Shown: positions 12,001 through 21,000 of the stretch, in pieces
Layout of the letters: each line of letters opens with the position of its first letter
Position numbering within the stretch: position 1 is the stretch's first letter
NCBI RefSeq assembly: GCF_030013205.1
Contig: NZ_CP122648.1
DNA: 64,000 bases
Source: Escherichia coli
Lineage (GTDB): Bacteria; Pseudomonadota; Gammaproteobacteria; Enterobacterales; Enterobacteriaceae
Direction: 5' to 3' (one strand)
Made by a program: the position numbers

Positions 12001-15000
12001 AACAGATTATTGAAACGATGCGTATGGTTGGGCTGCTACCGGATCACGTCAGTTACTATCCGCATATGTTGGCACCCGGGCAAAAACAGCGTCTGGGGCT
12101 GGCGCGCGCGCTGATATTGCGCCCAAAAGTCATTATTGCCGATGAAGCCCTCGCCTCACTGGATATGTCGATGCGTTCGCAGTTGATTAATCTGATGCTT
12201 GAGTTACAGGAAAAACAGGGCATTTCGTATATTTATGTTACCCAGCATATCGGAATGATGAAGCACATTAGCGACCAGGTGCTGGTGATGCATCAGGGCG
12301 AGGTTGTCGAGCGAGGCAGCACCGCAGATGTGCTGGCATCGCCGCTGCATGAACTCACCAAACGGCTGATTGCCGGTCATTTTGGCGAGGCATTGACGGC
12401 GGATGCGTGGCGTAAGGACCGTTAGTGTTTTGCACCTCATCCTGACAGGGCCCCCCTCAGGATGAGGTGTTCATTACTTTTGATTGTCGATTCTGGTGAG
12501 AGCAACCAGCAATGCCAGCGTATAACACACCGTAATTGCCAGACTCATTTTTAACAGTGTTTCTCCGCCAATTCCCGACAATGGCGCGGCTATACCGCCG
12601 AAGACAAACATGCTCATCCCCATCAACGCAGACGCCGTTCCAGATTCCTGCGTCCCTACTGCACTCATAGCCTCTGCCCCGCCAACAGTGCCGATGCCGC
12701 TACAAAATGCGATGGTGAAAAATAATGCCACCAGTGCCGGAATGGGCAATTGTATCCATGCGCATAAGACCGTGAGCATTGCACACAAAATTGCCGCTAT
12801 CAGGCCACCTCGCAACAATGTCATCGCGTTAATCCGTCGCGCCAGGCGCGAGAAGATCCATGAAGCAATGATAAGTCCGATGCCGTTAAGGCCAAACACC
12901 AGGCTAAATTGCATTGGACTAAAGCCAAATTCCTTCTGCAACACGAACGACGAAGAGCCGATATATGCAAACAAACCGGCCAGCATAAAACTTTGAATCA
13001 GGCAAAAGCGCATAAAACGGCGGTTCTGCACCACGCTTCGTCCGGTTAATAGCAATGATGAGCCCCTTTTATTTTCTGGCAAGGTCTCATTAATAAATAA
13101 CAGGCAGCCCAGCAACAGTACGGTGCTAATTTCAGCCATTACCCAGAATAAAGTGCGCCAGTCAAAAGTGCTGACAATGTACCCGCCCAGCACTGGCGAC
13201 AACACCGGTGCCAGGCCATTCACCGTCATTAACAGCGCAAAAAACTGGGTCAACGTTACTCCCTGATATTTGTCACGAGCAATAGAACGAGAGAGCACCG
13301 AACCACCCGCCCCCGCGATCCCTTGAATAAAACGCCAGACCACCAGCCAGTAAATATTGTTCGTTGTCGCGCACAAAATGGAAGAAACAATAAACAATAG
13401 CAACGACAAGATTAACGGACGTTTACGCCCTATTTTGTCGCTCAGAGGGCCAAATAACAGTTGTCCGACGCCAAGACCGATCAGTGATGCAGTCAGCGTT
13501 AATTGCGTTATGGTCGTGGTTGCCGCCAGTTGCTCAGACATCTCCGGCAAAGCCGGCAAATAAAGATCGGTACACATCGGGCCGATACCGGCTAAAAGAC
13601 CAAGAATCAATGCCCATGAAAGAGAGACTCTAGCCATATTATTCCTTACTTGAGTGATGACATGCCGCCGTCCAGCGACTGCCAGAGCGTGATTCGGTTT
13701 GTAAAATCAGTCAGTTGTAGTGCCAGCAGCGCCTGCTGTGCGCTCCACAAGCTGCGCTGCGCCGTCAACACGGTCAGGTAATCACCAACACCCGCCTGAT
13801 AGCGACGCAAGCCAACATCGACCGTTTGTTGCTCAGCTTTAACATACTGGCGCTGTGCATCCAGTTGCTCTTCAAGCGTGGTCCGCCGCGCCAGTGCGTT
13901 AGCGACATCTTTAAATGCGCTCTGAACGGTTTTTTCATAGGTGGCAATGAGTCCACGCTTTTGTGCTTCTGCGTAACGAAGCTGCGCCAGATTACTTCCG
14001 CCAGTGAACAGCGGTAATGTGACCGATGGCGTAAATGACCAGATCTGCATTCCGTGGCTGAACAACGACGACAATGCGTCACTGCCAACACCAGCGCTGG
14101 CAGTCAGCGAAATCGTCGGAAAAAAGTTAGCCCGCGCCGCGCCAATATCGGCATTGGCGCTCTTCAAATTATGTTCCGCTTCCTGGATATCCGGGCGACG
14201 CAGCAGAACGTCAGATGACACTCCCGCAGGAACCAGACTTATCATTTGTTCCGGCAGGCTTTCCAGTGTTCCCGGTAGCAGATTTTCCGCAAGCGTTGTA
14301 CCTGCCAGTAAGTTCAGCGCATTTTTATCCTGCATCACTTGTGTCTGATAGCTGGCAACGCTGGCGCGCGCTTGCTGATAAACACTCATCGCCTCACTGA
14401 CATCTGTCGCTGCCGCCGTGCCAACCTGTTGCTGGCGCTGGATAATTTTCAATGAGTTTTCTGCACTGGCCATCGTTTCTTTTGCCAGGGCCAGGTTGCT
14501 GTTATCAGCCGCCAGTGTCAGCCAGGCGGTGCTGATTTCAGCAATCAGCGTTAAACGAGTGTTCTGGGCTGTAAATTCACTGGCAAGCCAGGTTTCCCGC
14601 GCCGCCCGAGATAAACTCTGATTACGACCAAACAGATCTAACGTAAAACTGGACACCGTGCCGTCAGCCTCGGCAGTGGTTTCCGTACCATTCGCCAGCG
14701 AACGACTGCGGGTTGAACTTAAGGCCGCATTCACCGTCGGGAATAACGACGCATTAGTTTGCCCATAGAGCGCCCGTGCTGAGTCAATATCAGCAATCGC
14801 TTTTTGCACATCGCGGTTACTGTTCAGTGCAATAGTCACCACCTGCTGCAATCGGGGATCGTGGATCACCTGCTGCCAGTCATGGCTGATTGCCTTTCCC
14901 TGGCCCTGTGCTCCCGGCAAGGTCGCCGGGATTGGGGATTCAGGCGTGCTGTAGTGGGGCTCGAGCGAGACACATCCCGCACTCAACAGCACCAGAAAAA

Positions 15001-18000: not shown

Positions 18001-21000
18001 TGGTCGGTGGCGCAACGTCAGGATATTGTGCGACGGGCAATGTGCGAATAGCCAGAATCCCCGCCAACATAATCAAAATGGCGATAACCCAGGCAAAGAC
18101 CGGGCGGCGAACAAAAAAGCGCGAAAACATCAGGCGTTGCCTCCATTAGCCTGAACTTCAACAGCCTTGACGGTCTGCCCTGAAGTGACTTTGGCAGAAC
18201 CTTCAACAATCAGTCGGTCGCCGTTGTGCAGGCCGTTCAGCACCAGCCATTTATCACCATACGTTTCTCCCGTTTCGAGCGTTCGCTGCTCTACTTTATT
18301 GTCTTTATTCACCACCAGCGCAGTTGCATTGCCTTTAGCATCGCGCGTGACGCCCTGTTGCGGCGCGAGAATAGCGTCTTCCATCACGCCTTCATCGACA
18401 CGAGCGCGAACAAACATTCCCGGTAATAACTGCTGTTGTGGATTGGGGAAAATCGCCCGTAATGTCACCGAACCGGTAGACTCATCTACAGCGACTTCGG
18501 TGAGTTCCAGACGCCCTTTTTCGCTGTAGGTTGTGCCATCTTCCAGAATAAGTGAGACGCTCATGGTGTCACTGTTGGTCGCCAGTGACTGTTTACGCAG
18601 ACGTAATAAATCGACACTGGAGCGAGTGAGGTCGACATACATTGTCTCCAGACCACGAATAGTCGTTAACGCTGTATCTTGCGACGCGGTCACCAGTGCG
18701 CCAGGGGTTACCGACGAAATGCCAATTCGCCCTGAAATCGGTGCGGTTACCGTGGTCCAGTCAAGATTAATGCGCGCAGTTTCCAGCGCGGCTTTTTTCG
18801 CCTCTACACTGGCTTTATCTTGTGCACAGGTAGACTGAGCATCATCAGCATCCTGTTGTGAAACACCGTTCTCTTTCACCAGTCGGGCATAACGCTGCGC
18901 TTTCTGGCAATCGGCTTTTACCAGTGCCTGTGCTTGTTGTAATGCTGCCCGAGCTTCATTCCATGCAGCCTGATAACTGGCCGCATCAATCTGGTAGAGA
19001 GGCTGTCCAGCCTTGACCAGATCCCCTTCCTTAAATAAGCGTTTCTGGATAATTCCCCCAACCTGCGGACGTACTTCAGCACTGAGCGCAGCACTGGTGC
19101 GTCCGGTTAATTCACTGACTACCGAGACCGGTTGAGATTTGACTGTAACAACGCCGACTTCTGTTTCTGACGGGGATGAATTGTTACTTTGCGTATTATC
19201 ACAACCAGATAAGAGCAGCATTGCCACTACAGATGTTGCTATATACTTCATTATTTTCTCCAGGGTGAGAAATACCCTCCTCATTAAAATTAATGAGGAT
19301 ATGTCAGGGATATTCAGTTATAACGAACCCGCATCGCGAAATGAATTTCGCAATGAAATAAGGGGGATTAATATCCCCCGCTATTGGTTAATTCTGTTCT
19401 TATTTATTTATCAACATACTAACAATATCCTGATATATTTCCTGCAGATGTTGTGGATCGCTTTTTTGCGGTGTTAAACGACGATAAACCGTACCTTCCA
19501 TCATGGTAGCAAACACTTCAACGCAGCAACGAATGTGCTCGTCGCTAAGATGGGGATGCATTCTTTTCATATGTGCACAACCGTTAGCGAACATTCTGGC
19601 GTCAGCTTCTTCAAGCATTGCCATAACCCGCGGGTTGCGTGTGGCTTCTGCAGCCACTTCCAGCATCAGCGCGTCGTCGTCCTCATTTAAGGATTTACGC
19701 AAGGCAAGGACTTCCGGGAAGTGATCGGTACGCGCGTCAATGTCCATTTGGGCAATACGAAAGTCGATGATACGGCGAACCATCTCTTCAATAATGGCGT
19801 CTTTGTTGGCGAAGTAACGATATATCTGACCCACGCTAAGCTGAGCTTCGCTGGCAATTTGCGACATACTGGCGGCATGAAACCCGCAGCGACGAAAACA
19901 CCGACGGGCGGCGTTAATGATTTCATCCTGACGCTGTTTGTGGCGTATCTCCAGCTTGCTGGTCATTTCTGTCTCCTGGCCTATCACTTGGTGAGAATGA
20001 TCGTTCTCATTTTTGCTGATTATACGTTTCTCCAAAGTAATGGAAAGTATTTTTATCTTATTCATGGTGCATATTCTGATAATGAAGAGATTGTGGAGAT
20101 TATGTGAAGATAGTTGACAATATTAAGTTGGGGTCAATTCATCAGAAAGGCTGCTACTTGTTGTCGCCAGTTCTGTTTTCATCATCAAACTTATCGGAGC
20201 TAATACGAATAGTTTCAGAGTCAGATTCTATAAGATATTCCCCCAACCTACCCCTTGCAGGCGTCAAGAGTAGATAACGCAAAATGCTCTGTACCGCAGC
20301 TTCTCTCCGGTACAGAAAGCGCAACTATAGCCACCCACAGCCAGGTTGATTATAATAACCGTTTATCTGTTCGTACTGTTTACTAAAACGACGAATCGCC
20401 TGATTTTCAGGCACAACAAGCATCAACAATAAGGATTAAAGCTATGGGTTTTCTTTCCGGTAAGCGCATTCTGGTAACCGGTGTTGCCAGCAAACTGTCC
20501 ATCGCCTACGGTATCGCTCAGGCGATGCACCGCGAAGGAGCTGAACTGGCATTCACCTACCAGAACGACAAACTGAAAGGCCGCGTAGAAGAATTTGCAG
20601 CTCAATTGGGTTCTGACATCGTTCTGCAGTGCGATGTTGCCGAAGATGCCAGCATCGACACCATGTTCGCTGAACTGGCGAAAGTTTGGCCGAAATTTGA
20701 CGGTTTCGTACACTCTATTGGTTTTGCACCTGGCGATCAGCTGGATGGTGACTATGTTAACGCCGTTACCCGTGAAGGCTTCAAAATTGCTCACGACATC
20801 AGCTCCTACAGCTTCGTTGCAATGGCAAAAGCTTGCCGCTCCATGCTGAATCCGGGTTCTGCCCTGCTGACCCTTTCCTACCTTGGCGCTGAGCGCGCTA
20901 TCCCGAACTACAACGTTATGGGTCTGGCAAAAGCGTCTCTGGAAGCAAACGTGCGCTATATGGCGAACGCGATGGGTCCGGAAGGTGTGCGTGTTAACGC

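Follow-up and report, generated by a model that had tools for sequence, protein, structure and literature searches.

An intact five-gene efflux operon matching eefRABCD between sapF and fabI in an Stx2e-producing Escherichia coli strain

The window analysed here is a stretch of 64,000 nt of Escherichia coli DNA (contig NZ_CP122648.1), and all coordinates refer to this whole stretch. The gap between sapF (11619-12425) and fabI (20444-21232) holds five intact, co-oriented genes, found by calling open reading frames (ORFs) and all on the minus strand, which encode a TetR-family regulator, an adaptor, an RND transporter, a NodT-type channel and an MFS exporter. Translation gave no internal stops in any of the five. 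With a probability of about 0.93, the cluster represents eefRABCD, a chromosomal operon of E. coli, and is intact in this strain. Only ycjD is found at the same site in K-12. A preliminary description of this DNA had given the coordinates, strand and order of the five genes, their annotated flanks, a 477-bp gap to the divergent fabI gene, the K-12 state and the close gene spacing of a single operon, and each of these points was borne out by the ORF calls, the annotation or the K-12 comparison.

The first gene of the operon, eefR (19400-19966; ORF call and PGAP annotation), encodes a 188-amino acid (aa) TetR-family repressor of the operon, and Pfam TetR_N is recorded for a protein cluster 99% identical to it. 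A spacer of 148 nt (19252-19399) separates it from eefA (18130-19251), encoding a 373-aa periplasmic adaptor lipoprotein with the lipobox LLSGC and Cys17. The adaptor gene overlaps by 1 nt with eefB (15023-18130), which encodes a 1035-aa HAE1 RND transporter. This is followed after 3 nt by eefC (13646-15019), encoding a 457-aa outer-membrane channel lipoprotein of NodT/OprM type with the signal MLRRSLIFLVLLSAGC, and after a further 8-nt gap by eefD (12474-13637), encoding a 387-aa MFS exporter of Bcr/CflA (DHA1) type. The longest ORFs for eefA and eefR extend to 19284 and 20065, respectively, the latter position being upstream of the predicted eefR promoter. The shorter starts, which are those of PGAP (the ATG at 19251 and position 19966), were preferred because of the lipoprotein signal MKYIATSVVAMLLLSGC that results for EefA and the position of the promoter for eefR.

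Family assignment was made with NCBIfam profile cut-offs. EefB scored 1547.9 bits with the HAE1 RND profile TIGR00915 (cut-off 940.35), EefA 274 bits with the RND_mfp profile TIGR01730 (cut-off 94.9), EefC 366 bits with the NodT profile TIGR01845 (cut-off 210) and EefD 283 bits with the Bcr/CflA profile TIGR00710 (cut-off 200.9), in keeping with the initial reading of the cluster as TetR, adaptor, RND, outer-membrane factor (OMF) and MFS. In record NZ_CP062203.1, whose locus is identical, eefD is annotated as a multidrug efflux MFS transporter. The published residues are also in place: D408, D409, K935 and T972 of the EefB proton relay, R120, L124, S131 and D136 of the RLS(D) motif in EefA, and D206, G412, L415, T416, L418 and T419 in EefC. 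The locus therefore has the parts of an HAE1 tripartite system, namely an RND protein above its cut-off with a proton relay, and an adaptor and an OMF each with a lipobox cysteine (LLSGC in EefA and LLSAGC in EefC). EefR, with 188 aa, V45 and R50, matches the published protein (PMC12482432).

Comparison with characterised pumps, proposed in the preliminary description, yielded relatives for the RND, adaptor and OMF proteins, but the equivalog cut-offs for AcrB, AcrD, MexA and OqxB were not reached. The best solved relatives of EefB are AcrB (about 1281-1288 bits) and MexB (1273 bits), both full-length matches; the nearest solved structures to EefA are AcrA and MexA; and those to EefC are OprM (337 bits) and OprJ-like proteins, with TolC absent among EefC matches to solved structures at E ≤ 1e-20. 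These nearest structures agree with the published modelling. Identity with a named pump was rejected on score for EefB as an AcrB, AcrD or OqxB equivalog (1374.5 bits against a cut-off of 2150, 1403.6 against 1854 and 840 against 2200, respectively), for EefA as a MexA or AcrA equivalog (399.8 against 750 and 387.7 against 765) and for an AdeK equivalog (320 against 900). OqxA/B and CusC-type equivalogs were likewise under their NCBIfam cut-offs, no named equivalog tested having passed. The Eef proteins are thus paralogues of the named pumps rather than members of those groups.

The 8.5-kb region is 100% identical to that of E. coli K_EC180, a swine isolate making Shiga-like toxin (PMC8071739), in which the same five genes are annotated, and other E. 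coli match the locus at 98.6-100% nucleotide identity. Between fabI and sapF, Pugh et al. (Microb Genom 2026, PMC12817139; bioRxiv 10.1101/2024.08.01.606150) describe an operon of five genes, and eefRABCD was also studied by Shen et al. (Virulence 2025, PMC12482432). It is clear, then, that the system is already known and experimentally characterised, and that what the window holds is another allele rather than a new system. The proposal of an accessory five-gene efflux operon, absent from K-12 and host-like in composition, is supported. Membership of the conserved core with a well-characterised function, or overlooked frameshifts, had been named as what would count against that proposal: the locus is not core, its function has since been characterised in the literature and the reading frames are intact.

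The segment specific to the operon extends from about 12470 to 20320. Its right boundary lies at 20320/20321, since K-12 is 98.8% identical over 20321-20489 (169 bp) and blastn gave no significant K-12 similarity left of 20321 on the fabI side. On the left, eef-specific sequence begins just past a hairpin (12433-12469, plus strand; 13-bp arms at 12433-12445 and 12457-12469) between the convergent genes sapF and eefD. In K-12 these stems recur with a single compensated change, the loop being different, and blastn aligns the stems at 12433-12447; the hairpin is probably the sapF terminator. No eef remnants were found in the K-12 sapF-fabI gap beyond the flanks and terminator stems (blastn, word size 7; chance hits only, E ≥ 0.7). 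The pump genes have a GC content of 0.50-0.55, and that of eefR and the intergenic region is 0.46-0.47; the flanks are similar, which confirms the host-like composition noted at the outset. Just inside the fabI-side boundary is a 12-bp inverted repeat (TCTGTACCGCAG / CTCCGGTACAGA, 20288-20316), which could act as a transcriptional insulator between fabI and eefR.

Upstream of eefR, the best-scoring sense-strand site is a predicted promoter (20019-20046, minus strand) with -35 TTTCCA, a 16-nt spacer and -10 TATAAT, matching the consensus at 10 of 12 positions. Starting 10 nt downstream of the -10 hexamer and ending 26 nt upstream of the eefR ATG is the 18-bp palindrome TGAGAACGATCATTCTCA (19992-20009, minus strand), an exact match to the published EefR operator. 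A pattern search found this perfect operator as a single copy in the window, where 0.2 occurrences of TGAGAA-N6-TTCTCA with at most one mismatch are expected in shuffled sequence. In 13 Enterobacteriaceae loci the operator is likewise kept, 37-51 nt upstream of eefR.

The regulation of the operon has been worked out by Shen et al. (PMC12482432). Promoter activity resides in the 316 bp upstream of eefR, and EefR is a 188-aa autorepressor that binds TGAGAACGATCATTCTCA upstream of its own gene. Binding in electrophoretic mobility shift assays (EMSA) depends on the palindrome and is abolished by single-base changes in it, and no further EefR site was found in the genome (PMC12482432). Reverse transcription PCR spanning every junction showed that all five genes are co-transcribed in ATCC 35218, as the close spacing in the window would suggest. 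The operon is silent in laboratory conditions unless eefR is mutated, and deletion of eefR raises eefA-D transcripts 27- to 83-fold, with eefA elevated 83-fold (PMC12482432). Repression, operator binding, co-transcription and efflux on over-expression are documented in the literature, and the window carries the same genes, residues and operator. In this strain, a single transcript would start at the promoter upstream of eefR, and EefR on its palindrome, directly downstream of the -10 hexamer, would keep the whole operon nearly silent. Inactivation of EefR, so far shown only by mutation, would allow production of a tripartite RND pump, made up of the adaptor EefA, the proton-driven transporter EefB and the OprM-like channel EefC, together with the inner-membrane MFS exporter EefD. 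When over-produced, these pumps would export dyes and several amphiphilic drugs.

The eefR-fabI intergenic region (19967-20443) places 477 bp between two divergent start codons, and whether this adjacency is functional had been raised in the preliminary description as pure speculation. A functional link might, for example, consist in joint control of the efflux pump and of fabI, the triclosan target. No sign of such a link was found. The fabI-proximal 123 bp (20321-20443, plus strand) belong to the 169-bp segment common to K-12, which lacks the operon, so presence or absence of the operon leaves the sequence of the fabI promoter region unchanged. The only perfect EefR operator and the fabI start codon are about 435 bp apart, in other genera the orthologous operons do not adjoin fabI, and the failure of Shen et al. 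to find any other EefR site in the genome (PMC12482432) also argues against control of fabI by EefR. We consider a functional connection scarcely credible.

The spacer between eefR and eefA is highly structured on its sense (minus) strand, as revealed by inverted repeats and RNA folding. The first hairpin (19362-19379) has a GC stem and a U-rich tail and is terminator-like. The second (19332-19355) and third (19278-19299) are inverted repeats and correspond to the palindromes of the preliminary description, and a fourth, small hairpin adjoins the eefA ribosome-binding site in the RNA fold. The fold of the whole spacer has an energy of -47.8 kcal/mol (z = -4.0).

The palindromes at 19278-19351 had been put forward as a TetR operator, and they might be DNA operators for EefR or another regulator, driving a separate eefA promoter. 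TetR operators are usually palindromic, three near-perfect inverted repeats lie within these 148 bp and an 18-mer at 19266-19283 fits the operator pattern with one mismatch. The published binding experiments point elsewhere, as the non-specific EMSA competitor of Shen et al., a fragment "downstream of eefR", failed to compete for EefR (PMC12482432). The competitor primers in their Table S2 map to 19252-19272 and 19378-19397; the non-competing probe thus holds every spacer palindrome as well as the 19266-19283 site. That 18-mer was rejected as a second EefR site, being inside the published probe and not conserved even within Escherichia. The sensitivity of the true operator (19992-20009) to single-base changes (PMC12482432) also tells against an operator in the spacer, as does the consensus scan, which found no sense-strand promoter-like site within it. 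Furthermore, the 83-fold derepression of eefA on eefR deletion fits transcription from the eefR promoter, and an RNA structure is favoured by the stems, which covary and contain G-U pairs when read on the sense strand. Operators in the spacer are therefore improbable, and the palindromes are RNA hairpins that keep their structure across genera rather than EefR operators.

Conservation of the structure is evident at several levels. Comparable hairpins with different stem sequences appeared in the folds of all 10 other loci compared, and the second hairpin shows compensatory changes at seven of its nine pairs. The covariation score over both tested helices was 0.506, against 0.273 in shuffles and ≤ 0.194 with slid partners. 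Of the 2040 E. coli genomes possessing the spacer, 1905 have it at 99% identity or more. The structure of the spacer is discussed in neither of the two papers on eefRABCD (PMC12817139, PMC12482432). To judge from this conservation, the spacer may act at the RNA level, by partial termination or by processing or stability of the transcript, and so set the ratio of regulator to pump. A leaky terminator in the first hairpin, with the two covarying hairpins and the one next to the ribosome-binding site, would set the pump yield per regulator transcript. Alternatively, the spacer hairpins would stabilise the eefABCD part of the message. In Escherichia sp. MOD1-EC7003, the spacer has an insertion of about 125 bp (at about 8617-8741 of the retrieved locus) just upstream of the first hairpin, which leaves the three hairpins intact and which we take to resemble an ERIC/IRU-type intergenic repeat.

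Efflux by the over-produced proteins has been described in both studies. Plasmid-borne eefABC or eefD raises minimum inhibitory concentrations (MICs) 4- to 32-fold in acrB-deficient cells, a background in which over-production of EefABC and EefD leads to export of sanguinarine, macrolides, chloramphenicol, tetracycline, clindamycin and fusidic acid (PMC12482432). Effects on ethidium and rhodamine efflux were reported by Pugh et al. (PMC12817139). Several points nevertheless weigh against the account of the operon as a repressed multidrug efflux system. The eefR promoter in the window is a consensus match only, and no inducing ligand of EefR is known. The RNA-level role proposed for the spacer comes from conservation of structure, and its first hairpin is not a full terminator, because co-transcription through the spacer is documented. 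Finally, in the work of Pugh et al. neither deletion nor expression from pET changed any antibiotic MIC, ethidium and rhodamine alone being affected (PMC12817139); this is contradicted by the clear multidrug resistance that Shen et al. obtained with pBR322 constructs (PMC12482432). With the MIC studies in conflict, any physiological role assigned to the system is tentative.

One possibility is that the pump exports a host- or self-derived metabolite for gut colonisation or virulence, drug and dye efflux being a side activity of over-expression. Deletion of eefB, eefABC or eefD in ATCC 25922 lowers no antibiotic MIC, and within E. coli eef is as conserved as acrAB-tolC (PMC12817139). The silence of the operon in the laboratory unless eefR is mutated (PMC12482432) and the near-identity of the spacer in 1905 of 2040 genomes point the same way. 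In addition, EefC is without the aspartate ring of TolC (PMC12817139), and the EefC residues were confirmed here. However, neither a natural substrate nor an inducer has been identified so far, and the over-expressed pump clearly handles several drug classes (PMC12482432). We place metabolite export a little short of even odds. It concerns the physiological role only and is compatible with the mechanism of EefR-controlled expression of the pump and EefD set out above.

The complete eef locus was found in 2037 of 5426 complete E. coli genomes (37.5%), which gives, over all genomes together, the presence and absence that the preliminary description proposed to survey. According to Pugh et al., eefRABCD occurs in phylogroups B2, D, E, F and G but not in A, B1 and C, where ycjD replaces the operon (PMC12817139). 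In our data ycjD was at this site in the eef-negative E. coli genomes, among those listed, and in the eef-positive records inspected the locus was always between sapF and fabI. The order rnb-yciW-fabI-eefRABCD-sapF-sapD is also found in E. albertii, E. whittamii, Escherichia sp. MOD1-EC7003 and one further Escherichia representative, with 94-98% protein identity to the locus in the window. As site and order are conserved in other Escherichia species, the comparison supports a locus that was already in place in the ancestor of Escherichia and disappeared from some E. coli lineages such as K-12, in agreement with Pugh et al. (PMC12817139). Since no significant remnants of the operon were found in K-12, loss rather than gain cannot be argued from them and rests on synteny within Escherichia.

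Recent acquisition of a mobile resistance island, for instance one borne on a plasmid, by insertion into the sapF-fabI gap would also account for the patchy distribution of the operon in E. coli. Orthologous operons at other sites in Enterobacter, Klebsiella, Kosakonia, Phytobacter, Cronobacter and Kluyvera might suggest movement, lateral transfer was proposed by Pugh et al. from similarity to Mex pumps (PMC12817139) and five plasmid records with eefRABCD were listed by Shen et al. (PMC12482432). However, site, orientation and flanks are identical in the four other Escherichia representatives, GC content is host-like and no integrase, insertion sequence (IS) element, tRNA or direct repeats were found at the boundaries of the locus. 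Moreover, of the five records published as plasmids, three bear little resemblance to one. NZ_CP134663.1 is 4.9 Mb long and typed as non-mobilizable, while CP054253.1 and NZ_CP141085.1, records of 252 kb and 385 kb, are also non-mobilizable and carry the run ymjA-sap genes-eef-fabI-rnb, including the essential gene fabI. The whole chromosomal run out to pdeR is listed for NZ_CP141085.1; the gene table of CP054253.1 is incomplete. These three records are probably chromosomal sequence labelled as plasmid, and on grounds of size, non-mobilizable type and chromosomal flanks plasmid carriage was rejected for them. With no mobility genes at its boundaries, a constant site in the records inspected and plasmid hits that are non-mobilizable with chromosomal flanks, the locus is very improbable as a recent mobile island. 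The original view that it is not a recent foreign acquisition is supported by composition and by the same site across Escherichia.

Outside Escherichia, the scan of species-representative genomes with exact peptide patterns missed Klebsiella and Enterobacter, whose loci were recovered instead through EefR homologues. Orthologous operons occur elsewhere in the chromosome in Enterobacter, Klebsiella, Kosakonia, Phytobacter, Kluyvera, Cronobacter and Dryocola. EefB of these genera is 84-89% and EefR 59-72% identical to the E. coli proteins, and the operator is present upstream of eefR in all; eefD is missing in some, for example Cronobacter and Dryocola. Erwinia toletana and Pantoea sp. have a different arrangement, in which the gene for an EefR orthologue (62-64% identity) overlaps by 4 nt with a following gene for an eefD-like MFS protein 48-49% identical to EefD. 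For comparison, EefD is only 30-37% identical to its nearest characterised relatives (PMC12482432). This pair (10001-11772 of each retrieved locus) is accompanied by no RND genes, has a degenerate EefR operator upstream and lies in both organisms between an osmE/bamE-like gene and nadE.

These arrangements bear on the origin of the five-gene operon. An ancestral TetR-MFS pair (eefR-eefD), which would survive as the two-gene operon of Erwinia and Pantoea, would have received a MexAB-OprM-like cassette in the Enterobacteriaceae lineage. In a neighbour-joining tree of EefR the Erwiniaceae sequences are sister to those of Enterobacteriaceae, a topology that fits either insertion of eefABC into the pair or deletion of eefABC from it. 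An uncultured bog gammaproteobacterium has a divergent TetR gene, encoding a protein 40% identical to EefR, beside a related adaptor-RND-OMF cassette; the association of regulator and RND genes may thus be old, which keeps deletion in play. An eefABC-like locus in Affinibrenneria, without eefR or eefD, was discarded as evidence on origin, being uninformative with an IS630 fragment upstream. That the spacer is a conserved RNA control element and, jointly, that the operon is a chimera of a TetR-MFS pair and an RND cassette is a tentative proposal, which on balance we think unlikely.

The operon is a reminder that K-12 under-represents E. coli, as about one-third of complete genomes carry this seventh RND pump, which comes with a channel of its own. 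Multidrug efflux can be switched on by point mutations in eefR, although that message has already been published. What goes beyond the published accounts is the structured eefR-eefA spacer, the Erwinia/Pantoea eefR-eefD pair and the chromosomal appearance of three of the five "plasmid" copies. The evidence for plasmid spread of eefRABCD rests at least partly on chromosomal sequence labelled plasmid, and the Erwiniaceae module without RND genes bears on how the five-gene operon arose. The residual novelty is modest and lies in the spacer structure and the possible modular origin.

Elsewhere in the window, the right end (58355-64000) is a prophage region next to a truncated ompW (58355-58480). 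It contains phage ash/Rha genes, the Rfam elements IsrK (58701-58775) and C4 antisense RNA (58799-58886) and, on the minus strand, the Stx2e genes stxB2e (62571-62834) and stxA2e (62847-63806), beside tRNA-Arg (63897-63973). The Stx2e genes identify the strain as a swine Stx2e-producing E. coli. Two adjacent hypothetical genes (102 and 340 aa) between cobO and rluB (43768-45108, minus strand) gave no NCBIfam or PADLOC match and may be a small accessory insertion. Near the operon, yciW (21376-22503) looks like a gene that evolves fast amid conserved neighbours, YciW having 77-80% protein identity to other Escherichia species against 97-99% for FabI and Rnb; within E. coli its conservation is ordinary (about 97-98% nucleotide identity). 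Rfam also identified the small RNA STnc180 (35777-35979, minus strand) and the trp operon leader (49952-50045, plus strand), both expected in this region.

The E. coli eefRABCD operon of the published studies (PMC12817139, PMC12482432) has the same five genes as the window, identically ordered and likewise placed between sapF and fabI, with an EefR of 188 aa and an identical operator. All residues singled out for the ATCC 25922 and ATCC 35218 proteins are kept here at the published numbering and there is no substantive difference, the allele in the window being from a swine Stx2e-producing strain. The EefABC systems of Klebsiella (Enterobacter) aerogenes and K. pneumoniae have orthologous adaptor, RND and OMF genes. 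Identity to the K. aerogenes locus is 75% for EefA and 84% for EefB, and to Enterobacter hormaechei 79%, 87% and 77% for EefA, EefB and EefC; published values for the three proteins against E. aerogenes are 78.1%, 87.3% and 74.9%, respectively (PMC12482432). The Klebsiella and Enterobacter operons have a co-oriented eefR upstream with the same operator, as in E. coli, but they are at another chromosomal location and their EefR is only 59-68% identical to that of E. coli. For the K. aerogenes operon, silencing by H-NS has been reported (Masi et al. 2005, PMC1112065, as cited in PMC12482432). More distantly, EefABC has the tripartite HAE1 architecture and conserved proton relay of MexAB-OprM and AcrAB-TolC. 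MexAB-OprM resembles eef in coding for a NodT-type lipoprotein channel of its own, and among solved structures OprM matches EefC best, whereas AcrAB borrows TolC, which the eef operon has no need to do. Both MexAB-OprM and AcrAB have a divergent regulator; in eef, by contrast, a co-oriented TetR gene is the first of the operon and an MFS exporter gene the last.

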